A stretch of 64,000 bases of DNA from Blastopirellula marina (GCF_002967765.1 NZ_PUHY01000005.1:688774-752773); one strand, 5' to 3'; positions 13,544 through 31,309 are shown, counted from the stretch's first letter. Notes: a model not told the origin generated them from the sequence alone. Made by a program: numbers and translations.

Positions 13544-16500
13544 TTATTCACCCGGCTCAATCACCAGCATCCGCACTTTGCGTTTCTCCTTCACAAATTC
13601 CAGCCCTGTCTGGGACGAGATAGTTGCTAACACCAGGTCCGGATCATGCGCCATCTGTAGTTCGACCGGGGTGGCCGGACTCGGAGCATGAAGGCGGAAC
13701 GAGACATTCTGTTCCGGCAAGTTGGTCGCTTCGATGACGATCGGGACGTCAATCCAGCGTCCCAGCCATTGATTGAAGAGCTGGAAAGTGCCCGTTCCTC
13801 CCCCGGCCCCGCCATCAGGAAAGGCTTTCGCGCCGAAGATTTCAATCGTATCGTACTGAGAGTAGGCGTGGCGCGGGGCATCCTCTTTCGGTACGAACTC
13901 CGGCAGCGGCTTGAACTTGTACTTTCCTTTCATGACGTAGACCTCCCGTTCCTGATCCTCGAAACGCATCTTCACGTTCAGCTTCAACTGATCGTTGAAA
14001 ATGGTGCTCAGTTCTGGCAAAAGCTTCTCACCTTTGGCCTCCGGGCGCACGACCCAGTCGCCAGTTATTTGGGTTGATAGGAAGTCGCTTGGTCCTGCGA
14101 TGTTTTGTGGATAGATATCGAACATCGTCTCCACGATCGAACCGATGTGCTGGCCACCGAAAACCATCCGCCAGCTTTCCAGGTTGCCTTCGCTGTAGTG
14201 GAACGTCAGCAAATCGGGGCCAGCGGGAATCGACTGATACTGGGACGGATGGGCGGCTTTGTACCACTTTGCCCGCGAATCAGGAAACGGTGGGGCAATC
14301 CGTTTGATATTCTGGTCATCATCAAGTCGATAGCCTGCTTCGATCATCGCTTGTAAATAAGGTGCGGCTTCCTGTTTGAGTTTCTTTTGCCGCTCGGCGA
14401 ACGAGAGTTTCGCGTCTTTGGGTTTCTCCTCCTCAGGCGACTCTTGCGGATCTTCCGCTTCCTTGTTCTCTGCCGCCAACGCGACAGCATCGTTCAACTC
14501 ATGAAATTTGCTGGCCACATCGTGCAGCGAACCATGTGCGGCGACTCGGCCTTCGGCGTCGAGTACGACGCAGTAGGGATACATCTTCACTGGGTAACCA
14601 CCGACCAGGTCTTCGTCTGACTTGGCCGCGGCAAACGTTGGATAGACATGCGCGCCATCTTGGATGGCGGCAGCGATGTCATCCGCTGGCGTCCCTGGCG
14701 GATGAATGCCGATCACTTGCCCTTTTTTCGCGATTTGATTTAGGATTGCGTAATCGTTTTTGCAAGGACCACACCACGCCGCCCAGAAGTGAACCAGCGT
14801 CGGCTTGCCACTTAGCTGCGGCTGCTCGCCCAGCCACTTGCCATCCGTTAAGGGAGGCGCGGCCTGACCGACTAGCTTTTGCATGGGGACTTTCAGCTTA
14901 TCGATCAACTCCTGGCTTTTCTGTAGTTCCAGCTGCTTTTGTTGCACTAGGTGATCGATTTCCGCTTGAGAAATGTCGTCTCGCCAGTCGTACTCGATAA
15001 CTGCATCGGCAACCCGTTGGTCTTGTACAAAGTCACCCGTCTGCGGTTTCAGTTTTTCTATCCGCTCGGTGAGATCGACATCGGTCGTACACTTCTTCAC
15101 ACGACTCTCGCAGCGGATGTAAGCATACTTTCCCTCGCCTTCTTTGCTGGTGTGGCAAACGATTCGATCCTGGGTGAAGGGATACCAAGCTCCGGGAGAG
15201 ATCTCTTGATAGTCACCGAACTGGACAAAACAGGAAGCGTTGGCCATGTGGTCGAAATTGGCCTCAAAAAATGCTTCGCCCAATTCGTCGATTTCCGCAG
15301 ATGTCAGCTGTGATTTTTGTTGTCGATACCACGCATAGTAATCTTTCGCCGAGGGAAACATTTGGCCTGCGATCTTCTTCACCGCTGGATGCTCATGCAC
15401 CAAGTCACTTTTGCCACCGTAGTACACGTAATAGAGCGCGGCATGAATCAGTCCCGTTTTGCGACCAATCCAAAGCCGTTCCGCGCGCCCCTTCGATTCC
15501 ACAATGTCGCATGTTTCACCTCCCATCTCCTCTTGACCCAGATGACGATAGGTAACGATGGCAGGATCGACGCGATTGTGGCACGTGTTGTGATAATCGT
15601 TGTCACCCCACCAAAACGTACGCGGTGTCGCTTGAATGAATTGATAAGCAAGGGGAGAAGAATGTTGCCACGACTTTTCGAAACTGGGTAGTCGAAAGAA
15701 GCGAGCTGGACGCGTGCCCGACCGTTCCTGACACCATGCCTCTTTCGAATCGTAATACCGTACGGCGTACCAATCCGATCCTCCATCGTTATCTCGCGAG
15801 TTTCTGTGGGAGAGGGATTCACTCAAGACACGAGTGGCATCCCAGGCCAGTAGGTTGTCAATGTTGACCCACTTCTCTTCGGCGACCGGCTCTGTCAGTG
15901 CGCGGCGGAGGTTTTCAAGGGACACGACCTCTTCAGCCGTCATGGTTGCCACATCACCGTTGCGGTAATCGATCTGACTGTAAAACCGGGGCAAGCGGTC
16001 GATCGCTCTGGCTTTCGCATGAGCCGCTATGGCCAGCTTTGTTGCCTGTTCGTCCGAAATCGTGGACGCATCGTCCTCGGCGGAAGCTTCGGACGTTTGC
16101 AACGCGAAGATCGTTGCCAGTCCTACCACAACCAAGAGTACCAGCATTGCTCCGGCGGCTTGTGGCGAACGCGAAGGTTGGCCGGTCAGGCGACGGATGC
16201 GCTGCAGCAGCGAGCCTCCACTGGCAGCAATCGCCAACGGTGTGCTGCTGCGGAAGGTTTCAACCGCCAGAAGGGCCTCGGAATATGGTAGCGGACCATG
16301 ACAAAGCTCGGCCGCGATCGCGTCGCAGCAGCATTCCCGCTCTTTCCGAATCTGGGCCGAGGCCCACCATACGGCCGGATGAAAGAACAGGACTGTTTCG
16401 GCCAGGTTTTGTAGCAGGTTAACCGCGTAGTCGTAACGGCGAATGTGGGCTAGTTCATGGGCCAAGATCGCTTCGAGTTGTCCCGGCGTCAGCCCACTGA

Positions 16501-17179
16501 CCATTTCCGTCGGAACTAGAATTACCGGTCGCAGCCAGCCCAAGACCATTGGCACGGTAATCGCCGCCGACTGTCGCAGCGACACCGAACCACGAATCCG
16601 CAAACGTTGACGCAGCCGCATGAGCGGTTCCTGCCAGCGAACCTCTTCGATTGTATGGCCAGTGCTGCGAAGCTGTTGTACGGCGAACCAATTCACAGCC
16701 AGTCGCAAGGCGAGTAACGCGACGCCCACCGACCACACGAGTACGAATCGATCAAGCCACGGGGCCAGGCCGACGGATAGCCATTGTGCCCAAGATAATT
16801 CGTTGTCTGTGGGAGCGGTAAATGTTCCTACACCGATCCGCTCCATTTCGATCGCAGGTGGAACCTCCGTCAGCGAGGCGGGCTCAATCGAACGATCCTC
16901 GATGGGAACGGGTTCCGCAGAGGGTTCTGAAGCTTCGAGAAGTTTGGATTCTTGCACCACAGCAACCACTGCTGGTTGCGCGACTTCCCAGGCGAAGGTC
17001 AGCGTCGCAATCGCCGCCATGCTGGTCAACGCCGTGCAGGCAATCAGATAACGCAGCTGTGCACGGGCATACGGCACACAGGCCAGCGCCAGAAGCAAGA
17101 CCACCCCAATCACGGTGCCTTGCCACAGGAAGTGAATCAACGTCCAGCCACAGGCATCGAGAAGGTGATCGATACTCAT
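13544..17179 (-). CDS. BlaR1-family M56 peptidase signal transducer with extracytoplasmic TlpA-like thioredoxin domain
   Basis: The N-terminus (LLDACGWTLIHFLWQG) is typical of BlaR1. The HEXXH motif (ILAHELAHIRRYD) lies in the membrane domain. A WAAWCGPCKND thioredoxin motif sits at about residue 800. The start overlaps the blaI stop as ATGA. Confidence 0.8.
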   Translation of the reverse strand: MSIDHLLDACGWTLIHFLWQGTVIGVVLLLALACVPYARAQLRYLIACTALTSMAAIATLTFAWEVAQPAVVAVVQESKLLEASEPSAEPVPIEDRSIEPASLTEVPPAIEMERIGVGTFTAPTDNELSWAQWLSVGLAPWLDRFVLVWSVGVALLALRLAVNWFAVQQLRSTGHTIEEVRWQEPLMRLRQRLRIRGSVSLRQSAAITVPMVLGWLRPVILVPTEMVSGLTPGQLEAILAHELAHIRRYDYAVNLLQNLAETVLFFHPAVWWASAQIRKERECCCDAIAAELCHGPLPYSEALLAVETFRSSTPLAIAASGGSLLQRIRRLTGQPSRSPQAAGAMLVLLVVVGLATIFALQTSEASAEDDASTISDEQATKLAIAAHAKARAIDRLPRFYSQIDYRNGDVATMTAEEVVSLENLRRALTEPVAEEKWVNIDNLLAWDATRVLSESLSHRNSRDNDGGSDWYAVRYYDSKEAWCQERSGTRPARFFRLPSFEKSWQHSSPLAYQFIQATPRTFWWGDNDYHNTCHNRVDPAIVTYRHLGQEEMGGETCDIVESKGRAERLWIGRKTGLIHAALYYVYYGGKSDLVHEHPAVKKIAGQMFPSAKDYYAWYRQQKSQLTSAEIDELGEAFFEANFDHMANASCFVQFGDYQEISPGAWYPFTQDRIVCHTSKEGEGKYAYIRCESRVKKCTTDVDLTERIEKLKPQTGDFVQDQRVADAVIEYDWRDDISQAEIDHLVQQKQLELQKSQELIDKLKVPMQKLVGQAAPPLTDGKWLGEQPQLSGKPTLVHFWAAWCGPCKNDYAILNQIAKKGQVIGIHPPGTPADDIAAAIQDGAHVYPTFAAAKSDEDLVGGYPVKMYPYCVVLDAEGRVAAHGSLHDVASKFHELNDAVALAAENKEAEDPQESPEEEKPKDAKLSFAERQKKLKQEAAPYLQAMIEAGYRLDDDQNIKRIAPPFPDSRAKWYKAAHPSQYQSIPAGPDLLTFHYSEGNLESWRMVFGGQHIGSIVETMFDIYPQNIAGPSDFLSTQITGDWVVRPEAKGEKLLPELSTIFNDQLKLNVKMRFEDQEREVYVMKGKYKFKPLPEFVPKEDAPRHAYSQYDTIEIFGAKAFPDGGAGGGTGTFQLFNQWLGRWIDVPIVIEATNLPEQNVSFRLHAPSPATPVELQMAHDPDLVLATISSQTGLEFVKEKRKVRMLVIEPGE

Positions 17180-17583
17180 TTCTTAGTTCCCTTTTGTCCT
17201 TTGGATTCCAGGTCGTCCAGCAGTTCGCGGATGGCTGCCAGGTCTTCTTTCGAGGCATGTTCGTCGGAAAGTGCCTGCATGACCATCTGTGCTGGTGAGC
17301 CCGCAAACACGCGGCGTACGAAGTCTCGGAGCAGTTGCCGCTGGGTTTGCTCGGCGGCGATCGCGGCAGAGTAGATATGCGATCGCTGCGTTTCATCACG
17401 CGTGACGAGACCCTTATCAAACATCTTCTGCAAGATCTTAAGGGTCGTCGTGTAGCCGGTCGCCGAATCTGGCAACGCGTCGTGAACTTCACGAACCGTA
17501 CTCGGCCCGCGTTGCCACAACACACTCAACAAAACGAGCTCAGCCTCGGTCGGTTTGGGGAGTTTCTTCTTCATGCCTGGCAT
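17176..17583 (-). CDS. BlaI/MecI/CopY-family transcriptional repressor
   Basis: It is 135 aa. The N-terminus (PTEAELVLLSVLWQRGPSTVREVHDAL) looks like a penicillinase-repressor winged helix. It is coupled to the downstream M56 peptidase gene. Confidence 0.8.
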   Translation of the reverse strand: MPGMKKKLPKPTEAELVLLSVLWQRGPSTVREVHDALPDSATGYTTTLKILQKMFDKGLVTRDETQRSHIYSAAIAAEQTQRQLLRDFVRRVFAGSPAQMVMQALSDEHASKEDLAAIRELLDDLESKGQKGTKK

Positions 17584-25610: not shown

Positions 25611-26333
25611 ATGTGGCCCTTTCGACGCAAGAAGCCGACCCCACCGAAATCGGAATCGCCGCCGGTCTATTGTCTGCAACCACAGATACCGGATCTTCCC
25701 TCTGGATTCGGCTACAAGAACACCTGGTGGGCATTCCCAACGCAAGACACCAGCGCAGTGGTCGCTGCCATTGAACTTCAAAATCCGCAGCCTGCGAACT
25801 GGCAAACCGGCATCCTGCATGCTTACCAGCAGTCGGTGTTCGTGGCACCGCCGATCGGTAAATGGACGTTCGTGGCAGGCTTTGATCTGCCCCCGAGTAG
25901 CACGAATGCACGCCAAGAGGTGATTGATCCGCTCCTTCAGCTGAGTCAGGTCTTCGGCGAAGCTCAGGCTTTTTCTACCCACCGAGTGGTCGGCTACAAT
26001 GTCTGGGCTAAAGCGGTATCGGGACAACTCATTCGCGGCTTTGGCTACCTCGGCGAGTCAGGCGAAACCTTCTGGGACGAAGGCGAGATGACTCCGGAAG
26101 AACACAATCTAGGCTTCCGCTTCTTCGACGAACGTTTACCAGAGGCGGAAGACGATTCCTACTGGGATCGCGAAGATCTTAGCTATCCCGACGAGGATCA
26201 CGTCATGCAAATCGCCGCAGCTTGGTCGATCTCTCCGACAACGCTCGATTCATGCCATTACCAGAAGCCACAATTAGGGGTGCTCGGCACGACTGCGCGA
26301 CGGCTGGATGAGGTAAGATCACGTCGAGACTGA
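25611..26333 (+). CDS. hypothetical protein
   Basis: It is a 240-aa ORF with no recognisable motif. Confidence 0.5.
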   Translation: MWPFRRKKPTPPKSESPPVYCLQPQIPDLPSGFGYKNTWWAFPTQDTSAVVAAIELQNPQPANWQTGILHAYQQSVFVAPPIGKWTFVAGFDLPPSSTNARQEVIDPLLQLSQVFGEAQAFSTHRVVGYNVWAKAVSGQLIRGFGYLGESGETFWDEGEMTPEEHNLGFRFFDERLPEAEDDSYWDREDLSYPDEDHVMQIAAAWSISPTTLDSCHYQKPQLGVLGTTARRLDEVRSRRD

Positions 26334-26367: not shown

Positions 26368-26955
26368 TTAGCCCGCATCCCCCAACTGTTCACGCAGACG
26401 TCGCAACACACGAGAGCGATATTTGCGAACGGATGCTGGGCTGATCTCGAGTTCCTCGGCCACTTGTCGAGCAGAGATCGAGTCGATCGTGGTTCGCCAG
26501 AACGCTTGCCAGGTTTTCGTTTCAAACTCGTTCTGCACTTGCGATAATGCTCGGTGCAAGAGTTGATTGAAGTGGAGATCATCGGTTGGTTCATCCGCCT
26601 CCGCCAAGTCGGGCAGTGCTTGCATCGCGGCAAGCCCTTCGGTCCCACCGGTCGCGTCGGCATGCTGGCCTTCGCGGCGGAGCGAATCGATGATCTTATT
26701 GCGTGTAATTGTCCACAACCACGCACGAAAGCAGCCAGTGGTACCGGTCGGGGTAAATGAGCCGAGCGACTTCAGCACGGCAAAGAAAACCTCCTGCAAG
26801 CAATCATGAATCGCGGCCGGCTGCAAACCCTTTCGCCGACACCAATAGGCGATCAACGGCGAATAGAGCTCGACCAATTCCCGCCAGGCAGCCGAATCGT
26901 CGTTCCGCACGCGAAGGATCAAGCTGGGACTGGTCGATTCCGACGAGCGAGCCAT
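26368..26955 (-). CDS. ECF-type RNA polymerase sigma-70 factor
   Basis: Region 2 (WRELVELYSPLIAYWCRRKG...CLQEVFFAV) and region 4 (ISARQVAEELEISPASVRKYRSRVLRRLRE) are both present. Confidence 0.85.
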   Translation of the reverse strand: MARSSESTSPSLILRVRNDDSAAWRELVELYSPLIAYWCRRKGLQPAAIHDCLQEVFFAVLKSLGSFTPTGTTGCFRAWLWTITRNKIIDSLRREGQHADATGGTEGLAAMQALPDLAEADEPTDDLHFNQLLHRALSQVQNEFETKTWQAFWRTTIDSISARQVAEELEISPASVRKYRSRVLRRLREQLGDAG

Positions 26956-27043
26956 CGGGGAAACTCCAAGAAAAGACGTGTCACACCTGCAGCGATCTTG
27001 ATAATAGTAACACGTATCTTTTTATTTCCTAGGATGTTCCAAC

Positions 27044-30000
27044 ATGATCGCAGCCCACTGTCCAGATCTTGACGATCTGCAGAAGTATCTTTCTGGTAGA
27101 TTGGATAGCATCGCCGCCGCTGACCTGGAAAGCCACTTAGATCAGTGCGAATCGTGCGAACAAACAATCGATCAGCTCGAAGCCGAGTCCGATTCGATGG
27201 TCGAAGTGTTGCGGAAGTGGAAGTCCTCGGATCGAGTAAGCTCCGTAGATGCTAGTCCAGAAATCGCCGCGGCCCAAGCGTTCTCGGCGAACCTGGCCGA
27301 TCGCCTGAAAGTGGCCAGTCATCTGACAATGGCTACATCGCCGACCATCGGAGCTTATCAACTCATTCGTCTCCTCGGACGTGGTGGGATGGGAGCCGTG
27401 TACCTGGCGCGGCACCGAAACCTCGACAAGCAGGTTGCCATCAAGCTTCTGCCAGCCCTTTCCGCCCAACAACAAGATATTGTCGCCCGTTTTCAACGTG
27501 AGATTCGCGCTTCGGGTCAGCTCGATCACCCTGCGATCGTCCGGGCGACCGATGCTGGCGAAGTTGATGGAATCCATTTCCTGGTGATGGACGCTATCGA
27601 CGGGCTTGATATCGGCCAGGTATGCCGAAATCTTGGACCACTATCGTTTGCCGATGCTTGCGAAATCGCCCGTCAGGCCGCCGTCGGCTTAGCGTATGCC
27701 CATGGAAAAGGGATTGTTCATCGCGACATCAAGCCATCGAACCTCATGCTCGACGAGAACGGCCAGGTGAAGATCTTAGACTTTGGCCTGGCGCAGATGT
27801 CACTGTGGAGTGACGAAGCAACGCAGCTCACGACCGTCGGTCAGTTGATGGGAACGCTCGATTACATGGCCCCTGAACAGGCTGAAGGAAGCGAACTGCC
27901 AGATCAACGGGCCGATATCTATGCCCTGGGTGCAACGCTCTATCGTCTGCTGACTGGCCGCCCTCCCCTGTGGGCTTCCCGGGCAGGAAGTCCGATCGAG
28001 AAGTTACGTCTCATCGCCAGCCACGATCCGCCGCCGATCGAATCCATTCGCGGCGATCTTCCTCCTGCTTTGACGCAGCTCGTGATGCAGATGCTCGCTC
28101 GCGATCCTGAACAAAGGCCGCAGTCGGCGGAGGAAGTCGCCGAGCGTTTGGCTCCGTACTGCGATACGTCAGAACTAAATCGCGTAATTAAGACAGCACG
28201 CGATCAATCTCCGGATGCCGACGGACATTCCGAATCACCCAGCGCGATACCTCGACCTATCAAATCGCAGCCGCCGCACAACATTTGGAAATGGACCACC
28301 CTGGCCGCATGTTTGGCACTGCTAATTCTCGGTGCCCGGTTTACCCTCGACACCTCCAAAGGCCAATTGATCATCGATTCCAAAGACGCCAACCTGCACA
28401 TCCACCTTCGCCGGGATGGACAGGCCTATCGTGACTTGGAAATCCATCCCGGCGTTCAAGTCACTAAGCTATACGGCGGCAATTACGAAATTGTCCTCGA
28501 TCAACCTAGTGATAATATCACCATCTCGCGGAAGAAGTTCAGCATTAGGATGGGGGAAAAACTCATTGCGACGGTTCAGGAAAAGCCTGGAGAAGTGGTC
28601 GCAGTAAACGAGCCCCAACCTGCTGAAAAGCCCGCTGCGGAAGCGGTGAAAGTCACTGCCAAACGTGTGAAAGTTGCCGCGGTCGAAGCAAAGACGGTCA
28701 GGGTTCGTTACCTCTATCTGGGCCGTCTCCAAGAGCGTGCTTTGGGATTCTTGACCCCGAACCGAGATGGCGTAGTCAAGGATTTGAATGTTCACCTTGG
28801 GCAAGAGGTGAAGAAGGGAGACCTGATTGCGGAAGTTGTTTCGGCCGACAACGAGAAAGAAGCTATCCAGGCTCCCTTCGATGCCTTCGTGATTGGGTTG
28901 AAGGTTGCCGAGGGAGACCAGGTGAAAAAGGGAGATATGCTGATGCTGTTATCCGCCAACGGTCCGGCGATCGTCAATTTCGATATTTCTCCAGACGAAC
29001 GTCTGCTGTTTGTGCAAAGCGTACTCAACGGCGATACGAAAATGGAGCTCGTGTTTGAAAAAAACGAGAAGAAGTACGACCACGCGGGAAAGTTGACGAA
29101 GGTTGACGGGAAGGTTGACTCGCATGGAAACATCGAACTGCAAGCCGAATTCCCCAATCCGGAAGGAAAGGTTGGGACGGGAACAAGGGCGTGGATCGAG
29201 ATCAACCCAACGCTCGAAAATGTCACCCTAGTCCCGAAAGAGGCCGTGTTCCGGAGGGACAATCGAACCTGCGTGTTGGTTGTGGACGATCATCAAATCG
29301 CTCACCTGCGTGATGTTACCGTAATGAATCCATGGGAGGATTGCTACGTCATTAAGTCAGGAGTAAGAGTCGGTGAGCAAGTCATCGTTGATGGCATCGA
29401 CCAGGTCCAAGATGGAGAAAAGGTGGTGGCACCTACCACAACAGCCGATCGGCCAGTTGCCAAGACCATCCAAGTCGGAACCGTGGAAGCTCAATCGGTG
29501 ACGATCACCAATCGTTACGTCGGAGAAATTCAGAAGCGAACGGTCGGATACGTTGAGGCGAAAGTGGACGGGACGGTCGATCAAGTTTACGTCACGACAG
29601 GGCAGAAGATCCGCAAGGGAGATTTGATTTTCGAGACCACATCGGCCGAAAGCTCAAGTGATCGTGACACCCCTGCTCAAGACCCCAACAGTGCGATCCA
29701 AGCGCCGTTTGATGGATTCGTCTGGGGCGTGAAATTCAAGAAGGGAGATCGGACCAAAAAAGGAGATAAACTGATCATCCTGTCCGAAGCTGGACCTGGG
29801 GTTGTCGACTTCAACGTTCCGGCGAGTCGACTGGAGGAGATCATCCGGTGGGATTCGAACAACGAGTTAAAGCTGTCCCTGATGTTCTCGAATGGAAAGA
29901 GGTACGACCTGCCTGGAAAGCTGACTACGATCGACGGCGAAGTCGAACTTGCATCTGGAAATGTTCACCTGCAAGCCGAGTTCCCGAACCCTGATGGGAA

Positions 30001-31075
30001 GATGAGCATTGGGCAATCTGCAACGGTGCTTTTGGCACACACCATGAATGATGCCCTGGTCGTTCCACAGCGAGCCACATTCGAGAAAAGTGGCAATCAC
30101 TACGTATTTGTCGTCGACGATCAGGGAATTGCTCATCAACGCGAGATCTTCGTCGAAAGTGAAACGGAAGACAATTTCGTCATCGCCTCTGGTATCCGCC
30201 AAGGCGAGCAGATCGTCTTGGATCGCGTTCGCGAGGTGCGCGACGGGGAGAAAGTTGCGGCATCCATTTCCCAGTTACCCTTCAGCGACCCGGCGAAGGT
30301 TGCCCGCGTCGAATCGAAAACGGTCACCATCGAACATCAGCACGTGGCATTGGTGAGTGGGCCAAAGATTCACAGTATCCCATCACCCGCCAAGGGCCGC
30401 TTCGATAAAAAGTATTCTCGTACTTTTCAGAGCGTCAAAAAAGGAGAACTCCTTTTCACGTTTTCTCCGACGACGGAGGATGGCGAGAATGCGAGTGATT
30501 CCAAAGATTCGATCATTGAGTGCCGAGCTCCGTGCAACGGGATCGTGATCGATCATACAACGCCTGCGAGGCAAGACTTCAACAAGGGAAACATTCTGAT
30601 GAGCGTCACCGAGCATGGTCCGCTAATCGCCGACTTCCATGTAACGGATTCAATACACGAGGCGTACCGAGGACAACGTGATCTGAAGATCGAACTTCAG
30701 TTTGAGGATGGCAAGACCTACGGGGAACTTGGTCAGCTTGAGCCAAACTTCGAAACGCTTAGCGAAACAGCACAAGTCATTATGCATGCCAGCTTCGAGA
30801 ATCGCCGGGGAAGTTCGTTTCACGCGCGGCCTGGAAAGATCCATATCAGCAAAACGTTCAAGGACGCCACGGTCGTTCCCCAACGTGCCACCTTCGAGCA
30901 AGATGGCAAACGGTACCTCTTCGTGGTCGACGATCAAAACGTAGCCCACCGGCGTGAGATTGAAGTCAAGGGCCAAACCGAAGACCAGTTCGTCATTGCG
31001 TCCGGCGTTTCCGAAGGGGAACAGATCGTCGTCGACGATCTTCTGCAAGTGCAAGATGGGCAGAAGTTTCGCTAA
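27044..31075 (+). CDS. Ser/Thr protein kinase with N-terminal anti-sigma zf-HC2 motif, one TM helix and three tandem periplasmic membrane-fusion-protein (HlyD/RND-adaptor-like) modules
   Basis: The zf-HC2 motif is HLDQCESC. The kinase subdomains are VAIK, HRDIKPSNLM, DFGLA and DYMAPE. The TM helix is WTTLAACLALLILGA. Three roughly 275-aa repeats follow. Each has two lipoyl half-motifs (G.v..l.v..G..VkkGDl) and a beta-barrel/MP-domain ending in VVDDq.iAH.R.i.v......i.sGv..GEqiVvd....v.DGeKV. Confidence 0.85.
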   Translation: MIAAHCPDLDDLQKYLSGRLDSIAAADLESHLDQCESCEQTIDQLEAESDSMVEVLRKWKSSDRVSSVDASPEIAAAQAFSANLADRLKVASHLTMATSPTIGAYQLIRLLGRGGMGAVYLARHRNLDKQVAIKLLPALSAQQQDIVARFQREIRASGQLDHPAIVRATDAGEVDGIHFLVMDAIDGLDIGQVCRNLGPLSFADACEIARQAAVGLAYAHGKGIVHRDIKPSNLMLDENGQVKILDFGLAQMSLWSDEATQLTTVGQLMGTLDYMAPEQAEGSELPDQRADIYALGATLYRLLTGRPPLWASRAGSPIEKLRLIASHDPPPIESIRGDLPPALTQLVMQMLARDPEQRPQSAEEVAERLAPYCDTSELNRVIKTARDQSPDADGHSESPSAIPRPIKSQPPHNIWKWTTLAACLALLILGARFTLDTSKGQLIIDSKDANLHIHLRRDGQAYRDLEIHPGVQVTKLYGGNYEIVLDQPSDNITISRKKFSIRMGEKLIATVQEKPGEVVAVNEPQPAEKPAAEAVKVTAKRVKVAAVEAKTVRVRYLYLGRLQERALGFLTPNRDGVVKDLNVHLGQEVKKGDLIAEVVSADNEKEAIQAPFDAFVIGLKVAEGDQVKKGDMLMLLSANGPAIVNFDISPDERLLFVQSVLNGDTKMELVFEKNEKKYDHAGKLTKVDGKVDSHGNIELQAEFPNPEGKVGTGTRAWIEINPTLENVTLVPKEAVFRRDNRTCVLVVDDHQIAHLRDVTVMNPWEDCYVIKSGVRVGEQVIVDGIDQVQDGEKVVAPTTTADRPVAKTIQVGTVEAQSVTITNRYVGEIQKRTVGYVEAKVDGTVDQVYVTTGQKIRKGDLIFETTSAESSSDRDTPAQDPNSAIQAPFDGFVWGVKFKKGDRTKKGDKLIILSEAGPGVVDFNVPASRLEEIIRWDSNNELKLSLMFSNGKRYDLPGKLTTIDGEVELASGNVHLQAEFPNPDGKMSIGQSATVLLAHTMNDALVVPQRATFEKSGNHYVFVVDDQGIAHQREIFVESETEDNFVIASGIRQGEQIVLDRVREVRDGEKVAASISQLPFSDPAKVARVESKTVTIEHQHVALVSGPKIHSIPSPAKGRFDKKYSRTFQSVKKGELLFTFSPTTEDGENASDSKDSIIECRAPCNGIVIDHTTPARQDFNKGNILMSVTEHGPLIADFHVTDSIHEAYRGQRDLKIELQFEDGKTYGELGQLEPNFETLSETAQVIMHASFENRRGSSFHARPGKIHISKTFKDATVVPQRATFEQDGKRYLFVVDDQNVAHRREIEVKGQTEDQFVIASGVSEGEQIVVDDLLQVQDGQKFR
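28640..31075 (+). repeat. three tandem intragenic repeats (~826 bp / ~275 aa each) encoding MFP-like modules
   Basis: The repeat boundaries are at about 28640, 29465 and 30292. They are conserved at protein level. Examples are VKKGDLIAEVVS / IRKGDLIFETTS / VKKGELLFTFSP and the VVDDHQIAHLRDV / VVDDQGIAHQREI / VVDDQNVAHRREI ends. The DNA has diverged. Confidence 0.75.
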
Positions 31076-31195
31076 TTTTGAGATTGCGTCCAAATTGCCC
31101 ACTGCTTTCGGCAGCGGGCAAGTCAAATAATATGTTTCGCGACGAGTGGTTCGTTTTCGTTGCGTTGCACGCAATCTTCCAGGTAACGCAGCTCC

Positions 31196-31277
31196 GTAGG
31201 TCAGGCTGTGCCTGACACGCCTTGGGAATCGTTCCACCATGCTTGTACCAGCTTCCGTCAGGCACAGCCTGACCTAC
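31196..31277. repeat. 21-bp perfect inverted repeat (gtaggtcaggctgtgcctgac / gtcaggcacagcctgacctac) with 40-nt loop in convergent intergenic region
   Basis: I verified this directly by reverse-complementing one arm. A smaller palindrome, ttgcgt-tgc-acgcaa, lies at 31160..31174. The pair sits between the kinase stop (31075) and the SPFH stop (31310). Confidence 0.7.
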
Positions 31278-31309
31278 GACTGGGTGCCATGTTCACGCAG
31301 CATGCTCGA

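Follow-up and report, generated by a model that had tools for sequence, protein, structure and literature searches.

A planctomycete membrane protein with an anti-sigma-like zinc domain, a Ser/Thr kinase, and three hairpin-less efflux-adaptor modules

We identify here, in a 64-kb window of Blastopirellula marina DNA (the whole stretch that was analyzed, 64,000 nucleotides), a planctomycete membrane protein with a triple array of hairpin-less efflux-adaptor modules outside the cell and, on the cytoplasmic side, a Ser/Thr kinase preceded by an anti-sigma-like zinc domain. It appears that a pump component now serves as the sensory part of a sigma-factor switch. The protein is encoded by a single, uninterrupted open reading frame of 4032 nt (Table 1), within which the interval 28640-31075 of the original prediction corresponds to aa 533-1343. 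Pfam profiles match the 1343-aa protein once for Pkinase (2e-49) and in three stretches each for HlyD_3, Biotin_lipoyl_2, and HlyD_D23, which, together with one transmembrane helix, bears out the predicted fusion of a kinase through a single helix to three tandem adaptor modules. The original prediction knew of no described fusion of this kind, and our search of the accessible literature likewise found no description of a kinase-adaptor fusion, although this protein and its single-module relatives are already in public databases, labelled only as adaptor subunits. Identical proteins are entered at NCBI as WP_105328990.1, PQO37741.1, and RCS50128.1, and the name of RefSeq WP_105328990.1 (Bremerella/Blastopirellula) is only "efflux RND transporter periplasmic adaptor subunit". 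At least five independent assemblies contain near-identical copies with a protein length of 1343 or 1344 aa. The triple array does not stand alone: it is the derived endpoint of a small family.

Table 1. Positions of the kinase-adaptor gene, its domains, and the adjoining sigma factor gene in the window
Feature	Position (nt)	Strand	Details
ECF sigma factor gene, divergent from kinase gene	26368..26955	-	195 aa; Sigma70_r2 (1.8e-14), r4_2; TIGR02937 (1e-23)
Conserved intergenic block	26978..27014		near-invariant in window, L001, L004, L013
Sigma-70-like promoter match (predicted)	26978-27005	+	GTGTCA, 16 nt, GATAAT; promoter scan, within conserved block
Complete kinase-adaptor gene (all domains listed below)	27044..31075	+	1343 aa plus stop
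N-terminal zinc anti-sigma-like (ZAS, class I ASD-like) domain	27044..27328	+	aa 1-95; C6...H31-x3-C35-x2-C38
Hanks-type Ser/Thr kinase domain	27356..28135	+	aa 105-364; Pkinase 2.2e-49
Single transmembrane helix	28292..28348	+	aa 417-435; top Kyte-Doolittle 19-residue window of the protein (1.68)
Juxtamembrane periplasmic domain	28349..28672	+	aa 436-543; without Pfam or NCBIfam match
Adaptor module R1	28673..29488	+	aa 544-815; hairpin stump aa 600-606 (nt 28841-28861)
Adaptor module R2	29489..30298	+	aa 816-1085; hairpin stump aa 867-883 (nt 29642-29692)
Adaptor module R3	30299..31072	+	aa 1086-1343; hairpin stump aa 1142-1159 (nt 30467-30520)

The zinc-ligand residues C6, H31, C35, and C38 of the N-terminal domain are invariant across 68 related kinases. 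The domain contains the H-x3-C-x2-C sequence, with an upstream Cys/His ligand ~25 residues earlier, that characterizes the ZAS motif, and class I zinc anti-sigma factors are its top structural matches. It shares with these proteins (RsiW, RslA, ChrR, and RsrA; Pfam zf-HC2) the C...H-x3-C-x2-C pattern and possibly the helical fold of the N-terminal domain, but here a kinase is inserted before the transmembrane helix and sensor that otherwise come next. The kinase domain contains the catalytic motifs GRGGMGAVY at positions 112-120 (GxGxxG), VAIK at 131-134, HRDIKPSN at 226-233, DFG at 246-248, and APE at 276-278, and judged by these residues it is a Hanks-type Ser/Thr kinase of active appearance.

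The ten best-scoring 19-residue Kyte-Doolittle windows of the protein are all located at aa 412-439. Beyond the transmembrane helix follows a small, beta-rich, conserved juxtamembrane domain that is common to kinases with other sensors. In P0094, which has an LRR in place of the adaptor, the juxtamembrane part is 48% identical to aa 436-543, and the domain is also present in P0271, P0272, P0361, P0377, and P0378. Neither this domain nor the zinc domain at aa 1-95 figured in the original prediction. In relatives, LRR, WD40, HEAT, Poly_export, and other domains are found on this kinase chassis, and the position of the adaptors is therefore best read as a swappable sensor slot.

Each of the three modules is ~270 aa in length, with pairwise BLASTP identities of 42% for R1/R2 (1e-69), 35% for R2/R3 (6e-49), and 30% for R1/R3 (2e-33). 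The array matched the membrane-fusion-protein families significantly, both in Pfam (HlyD_3 2e-24, Biotin_lipoyl_2 3e-22, HlyD_D23 7e-19) and in NCBIfam, where TIGR01730 RND_mfp aligned with an E value of 5.8e-108 in six stretches; the alignment passes over the hairpin region and so breaks each module into two. A split lipoyl domain is present in all modules (three Biotin_lipoyl_2 matches, both halves in the module alignment), as are the beta-barrel (three matches each of HlyD_3 and HlyD_D23) and the membrane-proximal domain (N-terminal strand plus C-terminal region), with the TIGR01730 match extending to profile position 320 of 322; RND-MFP_C and YknX_C were recorded for P0001. What is lost is the alpha-hairpin, since only 7, 17, and 18 aa separate the lipoyl halves of R1, R2, and R3, respectively, compared to ~58 aa in canonical relatives. 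An AF2 model of R2, based on an 84-sequence alignment, had a pLDDT of 83.1, with ~90 in the lipoyl halves flanking the stump and a single internal low-confidence stretch in and just before the stump. In Foldseek searches the model matched MexA (E 7e-17), AcrA, CusB, and BesA at probability 1.0, and the matches to MexA, AcrA, and CusB bear out the beta-barrel. For the membrane-proximal domain, an alignment of R2 to MexA covers residues 203-359 plus the N-terminal strand. The predicted module layout, with lipoyl, beta-barrel, and membrane-proximal parts but no alpha-hairpin, thus agrees with profiles, alignment, and structural model alike, and the modelled fold is not that of an unrelated generic beta-sandwich.

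Like the RND adaptors MexA, AcrA, and CusB, the modules possess split lipoyl, beta-barrel, and membrane-proximal domains. They differ from these adaptors in lacking an alpha-hairpin, a lipid anchor of their own, and a signal peptide, in being present as three copies per chain joined to a kinase, and in having no transporter or channel gene nearby. Lipobox-like signals are found in free adaptor relatives; here the chain has one transmembrane helix, and R2 and R3 are tethered to the membrane only through R1. Both ends of each module lie in the membrane-proximal domain, and linkers of ~10-15 residues connect the modules. BesA of Borrelia burgdorferi (PDB 4kks, 4kkt, and 4kku) is a natural hairpin-less adaptor (PMC3807786) with the same three-domain layout, to which the R2 model aligns over ~261 columns with a TM-score of ~0.60. 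Sequence identity to BesA is ~15%, which argues that the hairpin was lost independently, and BesA, unlike the kinase-fused modules, is a free lipoprotein whose gene accompanies those of its pump (BesABC).

A functional connection to the adjacent ECF sigma factor had been proposed, and both gene order and the N-terminal zinc anti-sigma-type domain of the kinase support it. The sigma gene adjoins the kinase-adaptor gene in six of six distinct loci (window/L001/L002, L004, L005/L006, L013, and L014), orthologous sigma genes being located beside it in L004, L013, and L014; in L005 the sigma gene lies immediately upstream of it. The sigma gene is the only conserved neighbor. Among related kinase loci in GTDB genomes, 46 of 79 have a sigma homologue within 600 bp. 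No anti-sigma family match was found among the neighboring ORFs scanned. ECF groups that are linked to kinases and lack a separate anti-sigma factor are established (ECF43 and ECF59-62), and ECF/Hanks kinase pairs include EcfP-PknT of Vibrio, EcfK-PknS of Xanthomonas, ECF43, and planctomycetal ECF59-62 (PMC7826278, PMC13147305, PMC8103513). As in these pairs, a gene for a transmembrane Ser/Thr kinase adjoins an ECF sigma gene without a separate anti-sigma gene, part of the acidic DAED motif is lost, and the extracytoplasmic domain of the kinase is variable. The present kinase differs from them in its N-terminal zinc anti-sigma-like domain, of which we found no mention for kinases of ECF/kinase pairs in the literature searched, and in having an adaptor array as its sensor. 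Region 2.2 of the sigma factor reads AIHD in place of the canonical ECF DAED, and AVQD in one orthologue, with the loss of two acidic residues. Neither sequence offers a Ser or Thr at these positions, so the pair is not an EcfP-type switch. The linker between sigma2 and sigma4 contains a TGGT motif that the three close orthologues (window, L004, and L013) share and that is a candidate phosphorylation site only.

R1-R3 are 30-40% identical to planctomycetal adaptors of adaptor/RND/outer-membrane-factor operons. Canonical hairpin-bearing adaptors are located in pump operons, for example P0194 in an operon of adaptor, RND, and outer-membrane-factor genes. Single-module kinase fusions retain the full hairpin, and hairpin-less kinase fusions have one, two, or three modules. 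Neither the 64-kb window nor the surroundings of any related fusion contained an RND, outer-membrane-factor, or other pump gene, and ACR_tran and OEP genes were absent from the window and from loci L001, L002, L004, L013, and L014; the suggestion that the protein docks onto an efflux or secretion machine is therefore unsupported by gene context. The same adaptor clade also follows the last transmembrane helix of BlaR1-type M56 proteases (P0009, P0012, P0015, P0039, and P0056; fragment P0016 likewise combines M56 with an adaptor) and of sigma-TM fusions (P0011, P0019, P0031, and P0155). In these BlaR1/MecR1-type sensor-transducers and sigma-TM proteins of Planctomycetota the C-terminal extracytoplasmic domain is the same adaptor-derived module, but their output is a protease or sigma itself, they have one module, and many retain a short hairpin.

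All segments of the gene are under purifying selection, with dN/dS values of 0.16-0.36 that indicate that the modules are functional. R1-R3 keep 55-71 of the 146 positions conserved in pump adaptors (38-49%), compared to 105-127 of 146 (72-87%) in the hairpin-bearing single-module kinase fusions. Retention of pump-adaptor positions is higher in the membrane-proximal domain than in the barrel for R2 (66% vs 40%) and R3 (56% vs 28%); this preference is modest overall and absent in R1. The distal modules differ strongly between strains at ~97% nucleotide identity, dS is raised in R2 and R3, and in L002 one divergent module replaces both.

In the reading that we prefer, the gene product would span the membrane and regulate the ECF sigma factor encoded divergently from it. 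We infer sigma binding and phosphorylation: the zinc anti-sigma-type domain and the kinase would hold sigma and phosphorylate either sigma or themselves to release it. The adaptor modules would form the periplasmic input domain, derived from a planctomycetal RND efflux adaptor, with the hairpin, the part that reaches the outer-membrane channel, dropped from each module. The modules may self-associate side by side or dock on the periplasmic part of an inner-membrane transporter, the identity of the partner being speculative, and the state of pump or envelope would be passed on through kinase clustering and activity to sigma-dependent transcription. We read the modules as a sensor and not as a pump part because P0194 is operonic with a pump whereas the fusions have no pump gene nearby, and because the same clade is joined to M56 proteases and sigma-TM proteins. 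Contacts of the adaptor type may be retained, given the high conservation of the hairpin-bearing single-module fusions and the better preservation of the membrane-proximal, transporter-contacting domain than of the barrel in R2 and R3. On the other side, the low proportion of pump-adaptor positions kept in R1-R3 suggests that pump contacts may be lost, and a fixed stoichiometric match to a pump is hard to reconcile with the variable module number in close relatives. That the protein is a sigma-controlling receptor kinase whose adaptor-derived sensor acts through adaptor-type contacts is a proposition that we consider evenly balanced.

It is possible, if rather doubtful, that the modules have been neofunctionalized away from pumps and adaptors, with the same sigma output, and now bind a soluble ligand, a metal, or an envelope polymer or serve only as a dimerization scaffold or spacer. 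The few adaptor-conserved positions kept, the lost hairpin, and the missing pump genes fit such a role, as does a sensor slot that accepts many unrelated domains, and adaptors can bind metal ions, as CusB does. The strain-variable distal modules and raised dS in R2 and R3 would fit a fast-changing, ligand-facing surface, but dN/dS is below 0.4 with no overall sign of positive selection, and a ligand-binding motif was not found. Unless adaptor-type contacts are made, at least by the hairpin-bearing fusions, the conservation of these proteins would be difficult to account for. We consider it improbable that the array is a working efflux adaptor whose modules are covalently linked ring protomers, as in engineered fused adaptors, so that the kinase regulates a pump locally and not mainly through sigma. 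Each module has the full set of three transporter-side domains, BesA is a hairpin-less adaptor that belongs to a pump (PMC3807786), the structure of a fused TriA-TriB adaptor is known (6vej), two-module adaptor proteins are found in nature (P0004, P0005, and P0154), and module ends and linker lengths are compatible with side-by-side packing. Yet the true adaptors of the clade are operonic with the transporter and outer-membrane-factor genes that are missing here, the only conserved partner is the sigma gene, and divergence from adaptor-conserved positions is strong and module number variable.

We also considered a mis-assembled or mis-called fusion of the kinase gene with adjoining adaptor genes, or a pseudogenized array, since draft assemblies often produce spurious multi-domain proteins and since the ORF calls of several relatives in long-read metagenomes were truncated or frameshifted; nothing in favor of it was found. 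The intact reading frame, its recurrence in RefSeq and independent assemblies, purifying selection on all segments, and one- and two-module relatives of the same layout effectively refute this reading.

A broader proposal, which is tentative and which we think unlikely, is that the adaptor-derived modules constitute a previously unrecognized class of periplasmic sensor on three chassis (anti-sigma/Ser-Thr kinase, BlaR1-type M56 protease, and sigma-TM) that docks on RND transporters or the adaptor ring. If so, surrogate adaptors would let the cell read the assembly or activity of efflux pumps directly and adjust transcription, and the triple hairpin-less array would be a specialized form without outer-membrane contact. 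Such a system would be the RND counterpart of Bce-type flux sensing. The transporter-dependent "flux-sensing" kinase of BceS-BceAB in Firmicutes reads the state of its transporter by contact and not by substrate binding; BceS is a histidine kinase without a sensor domain and stands as its own protein, with its gene next to those of the transporter. In the present protein the Ser/Thr kinase is itself linked to a part taken from a pump, and any likeness to BceS would be one of functional analogy only.

The sigma and kinase genes are separated by 88 bp. The kinase proteins of L004 and L013 are only ~65% identical to that of the window, yet the intergenic block is near-invariant, and the promoter scan returned one site, compared to 0.2 in shuffles, for the predicted promoter within it.

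The interval 28640-31075, read in the original prediction as three hairpin-less adaptor repeats fused to a Ser/Thr kinase, corresponds to the C-terminal 60% of one ORF, whose product we call the kinase-adaptor protein. It is composed of a zinc anti-sigma-like domain, a Hanks kinase domain with the full set of catalytic motifs, one transmembrane (TM) helix, a juxtamembrane domain, and three adaptor modules, R1, R2, and R3. The Pfam families HlyD_3, Biotin_lipoyl_2, and HlyD_D23 each match three stretches of the protein, and TIGR01730, the NCBIfam model of RND efflux adaptors, matches six (E 5.8e-108), two per repeat, because the part of the model corresponding to the alpha-hairpin, which in RND adaptors reaches the outer-membrane channel, is skipped every time. 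Pairwise identities of the modules are 42%, 35%, and 30% (E-values 1e-69 to 2e-33). The two lipoyl halves are separated by 7, 17, and 18 residues in the three modules, compared to about 58 residues, forming a coiled-coil hairpin, in canonical relatives. Based on Pfam, TIGR01730, and the comparison of the repeats, the predicted structural details were all correct, and the matches to membrane-fusion-protein families are significant.

Features of the kinase-adaptor locus and other elements of the window (aa, residues of the kinase-adaptor protein)
Feature	Position	Strand	Remarks
Kinase-adaptor gene	27044-31075	+	1343 aa
Protein kinase domain	aa 105-364		Pfam, 2e-49
Single hydrophobic helix	aa 417-435
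Module R1	aa 544-815
Module R2	aa 816-1085
Module R3	aa 1086-1343
ECF sigma factor gene	26368-26955	-	divergent from kinase-adaptor gene, 88 bp apart
Sigma/kinase intergenic block	26978-27014		37 bp; sigma-70-like promoter match GTGTCA, 16 nt, GATAAT
ORF upstream of sigma gene	25611-26333		240 aa
Window-only segment	24944-25601		657 bp
ORF in window-only segment	25057-25542	+	161 aa
BlaR1-type M56 protein gene	13544-17179	-	1211 aa
ORF upstream of M56 gene	16884-17525	-

A structure model of R2, built from an 84-sequence alignment, reached a mean pLDDT of 83.1, and its sole poorly defined internal stretch is the short linker that replaces the hairpin, together with the residues just before it. 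When compared with the PDB, the model matched the adaptors MexA (E 7e-17), AcrA, CusB, MexC-like, and MacA with a probability of 1.0, and a PDB sequence search returned the same families. The model also matches BesA of Borrelia along its whole length (TM-score ~0.6), a natural adaptor that likewise lacks the hairpin. In the comparison with AcrA and MexA proposed originally, the modeled fold of R2 is thus not a generic beta-sandwich.

The predicted link to the adjacent ECF sigma factor is supported by gene order. A sigma gene immediately adjoins the kinase gene, in divergent orientation or overlapping upstream, at every distinct kinase-adaptor locus obtained, namely, those of the near-identical strains (L001 and L002), of the single-module proteins P0007 (L004), P0271 (L013), and P0377 (L014), and of the distant P0060 (L005/L006). 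By contrast, the suggested conserved neighbor, an RND or ABC pump or TolC-like gene, did not materialize: genes for RND or ABC-type pumps or outer-membrane factors are present neither anywhere in the 64-kb window nor at any kinase-adaptor locus compared, within the sequence available for each. In GTDB species genomes, 79 further loci encode related kinases; a sigma homologue is located at a distance of 600 bp or less in 46 of these, and an RND or outer-membrane-factor match in only one. Since the sigma gene recurs and pump genes do not, sigma factor and kinase form a conserved unit, in which the adaptor array occupies the sensor position of the kinase. P0194, a canonical adaptor of 364 aa from the same clade, is located in an operon of adaptor, RND, and outer-membrane-factor genes. 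The intergenic block separating the sigma and kinase genes hardly varies between loci, including L004 and L013, despite the kinase proteins of these two being only ~65% identical to that of the window. In L013 (12775-19578), the P0271 gene is directly followed downstream by another ECF sigma gene and then by one for a 2042-aa kinase-WD40 protein, indicating that sigma-kinase pairs cluster. The ORF upstream of the sigma gene was rejected as a conserved third component, being found only in near-identical strains and unrelated to a 239-aa ORF of L005.

The module is used by three kinds of signal transducer. Among the 150 best representatives, we observed a C-terminal adaptor module on BlaR1-type M56 membrane proteases (P0009, P0012, P0015, P0039, P0056, and the fragment P0016), and four proteins (P0011, P0019, P0031, and P0155) consist of an ECF sigma factor followed by a TM helix and an adaptor module. 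Wherever mapped (P0009, P0012, P0011, P0019, P0031, P0155, and the kinase fusions), the module follows the last TM helix, which is where a sensor domain is expected. The strongest evidence for use of the adaptor fold as an input domain, and not only in pumps, is this recurrence on M56, sigma, and kinase proteins. Modules of the M56 and sigma fusions (loci L007-L009 and L011) have short hairpins in some cases and none in others, and kinase fusions likewise occur with and without one; we thus rejected a rule by which hairpin-less modules signal and hairpin-bearing ones serve pumps. No pump genes are located near the sigma-fusion locus L007/L008; the M56-fusion locus obtained (L009) spans 3 kb only and is uninformative on pump neighbors. 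Free hairpin-less lipoprotein versions also exist, of which P0203 adjoins a BlaI/M56 pair and P0017 is an orphan, and neither adjoins a pump gene. The ~320-330-aa adaptors P0157 and P0188 were discarded as further hairpin-less free proteins, their sequences being N-terminally truncated ORF calls with hairpins; P0188 probably represents a sigma-adaptor fusion with a frameshift.

When aa 436-1343 were searched exhaustively against 1.84 billion representative proteins, 12,612 homologues were recovered, only 38 of them below 1e-30, and the strong matches were essentially single-module throughout, apart from the two-module P0002. A module profile retrieved thousands of planctomycetal adaptors, the best matches mostly of ~360-400 aa, and the consensus of the aligned adaptors contains the hairpin. 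When the search was made with aa 1-543, the chassis bearing the anti-sigma-like domain, kinase, TM helix, and juxtamembrane domain, 7 of the 120 nearest kinases had adaptor domains, and the others carried LRR, WD40, HEAT, Poly_export, FG-GAP, or other domains. A genome-contig scan with the whole 1343-aa protein recovered no relative, and one with P0377 recovered 80 kinase loci, with an adaptor at none but the locus of the query. The single-module kinase fusions P0271, P0272, P0361, P0377, and P0378 keep the full hairpin and 105-127 of 146 reference positions, defined by a conservation of 90% or more in pump adaptors. The corresponding count is 83 for P0007, which lacks the hairpin, and only 55-71 for the three modules of the kinase-adaptor protein. 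It is likely that a complete adaptor was fused to a kinase, then lost its hairpin, and was subsequently duplicated to two and three copies. Two adaptor modules per chain without a kinase are present in P0004, P0005, and P0154 (proteins or fragments), so that natural tandem adaptors exist outside kinase fusions; in P0004 (1001 aa), both modules are complete and have hairpins. The Poly_export (Wza-type polysaccharide export) domain found on the same chassis in P0282, P0283, P0284, P0290, P0306, P0328, and P0349 is a second instance in which the sensor position is occupied by a component of an envelope-spanning export machine.

The flanks of L001 and L002 are 96.6-98% identical to the window, yet the arrays differ between strains (window 29424-31280 compared with L002 12381-13197 and with L001). 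A single divergent module, 43% identical to R2, replaces R2 and R3 in L002, and L001 has mosaic patches. The dN/dS value was 0.11 in the cytoplasmic part and lay in the range 0.16-0.36 in the modules, and dS in R2 and R3 is three times the kinase value. Based on the low dN/dS, the raised dS, and the differing arrays, the modules are under purifying selection and are reshuffled by recombination; positive selection was rejected, given these dN/dS values and a raised dS that points to recombination. The window-only segment is missing from L001 and L002, which are otherwise collinear, and the ORF within it had no family match. In L001, the kinase-adaptor gene is separated from a convergent Band_7/SPFH gene by four additional genes (14060-16125), for TetR, CMD, an unknown protein, and a rhodanese, which are not present in the window.

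We infer by analogy with established families that the kinase-adaptor protein controls the neighboring sigma factor. The zinc anti-sigma-like N terminus is invariant across this large family of planctomycetal kinases and suggests how the long-noted pairing of sigma and kinase genes might work physically: this domain probably holds the partner sigma factor, and a change of state in the periplasmic part would probably cause the kinase to phosphorylate the sigma factor, or itself. In ECF43 pairs, the sigma factor is directly phosphorylated, in region 2.2 in the case of EcfP and at T106 of the linker in the case of EcfK (PMC13147305, PMC8103513). An EcfP-type switch is not supported here, since the partner sigma factor has AIHD in place of the canonical acidic ECF motif DAED and no Ser/Thr at this position. 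By comparison with EcfK, the sigma2-sigma4 linker would be a reasonable candidate target; a TGGT motif in it is kept in three close orthologues.

For the periplasmic input, we favor, speculatively, adaptor-type protein contacts, either self-association or docking onto an inner-membrane transporter at its periplasmic face, because the hairpin-bearing fusions are almost indistinguishable from working adaptors, because the parts kept are exactly the transporter-side domains, and because the membrane-proximal domain is better kept than the barrel in R2 (66% vs. 40% of adaptor-conserved positions) and R3 (56% vs. 28%). Arguing against such contacts are the strong overall divergence of the modules, the lack of a membrane-proximal bias in R1, the variable copy number, and the absence of a genomic partner. 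The main rival is that the modules are fully neofunctionalized as ligand or scaffold domains. That three modules in a kinase dimer represent the six adaptors of a pump was dropped as a firm claim, given close relatives with one or two modules.

Efflux-state sensing in bacteria is mostly explained indirectly, for example through substrate-binding repressors or systems responding to general envelope stress. A direct connection from a pump adaptor to a kinase and a sigma factor would offer a specific candidate, open to testing, for how the state of pumps or of the envelope could be sensed directly. Adaptors also appear reusable outside pumps, and the fusions with and without hairpin, in one to three copies, constitute a naturally occurring series that lends itself to study. 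In Planctomycetota, ECF sigma factors linked to kinases were already known, as was the diversity of kinase sensor domains (PMC7826278, PMC11032199); hairpin-less adaptors were known as well (PMC3807786). A sigma-linked receptor kinase with an adaptor-derived, triplicated sensor is unprecedented: in agreement with the original prediction, no description of an adaptor in a sensor role or in fusion with a kinase was found in the full-text literature, as far as its incomplete coverage extends, and those supplementary tables of a planctomycetal kinase-architecture survey that are available as text contain no HlyD or lipoyl entry.

The identical protein is in NCBI (WP_105328990.1, PQO37741.1, RCS50128.1) from Bremerella cremea and Blastopirellula marina (Pirellulaceae, Planctomycetota), and the triple array is restricted to this lineage in the databases searched. 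The sequence is thus public, but its annotation obscures its nature: RefSeq names WP_105328990.1 "efflux RND transporter periplasmic adaptor subunit" and UniRef a protein kinase domain-containing protein. The adaptor-only name of a 1343-aa signaling protein will therefore lead to its misclassification whether genomes are surveyed for efflux genes or for kinases. Other genes of the window encode planctomycete-specific families, among them PSCyt, PSD, and DUF1559. At a distance of 10 kb from the kinase-adaptor gene, the BlaR1-type M56 protein, whose C-terminal parts are thioredoxin-like and DUF3738, represents a further large sensor-transducer of planctomycetes; in L001 and L002, which are collinear with the window, its gene is preceded by one for a 135-aa BlaI-type repressor.
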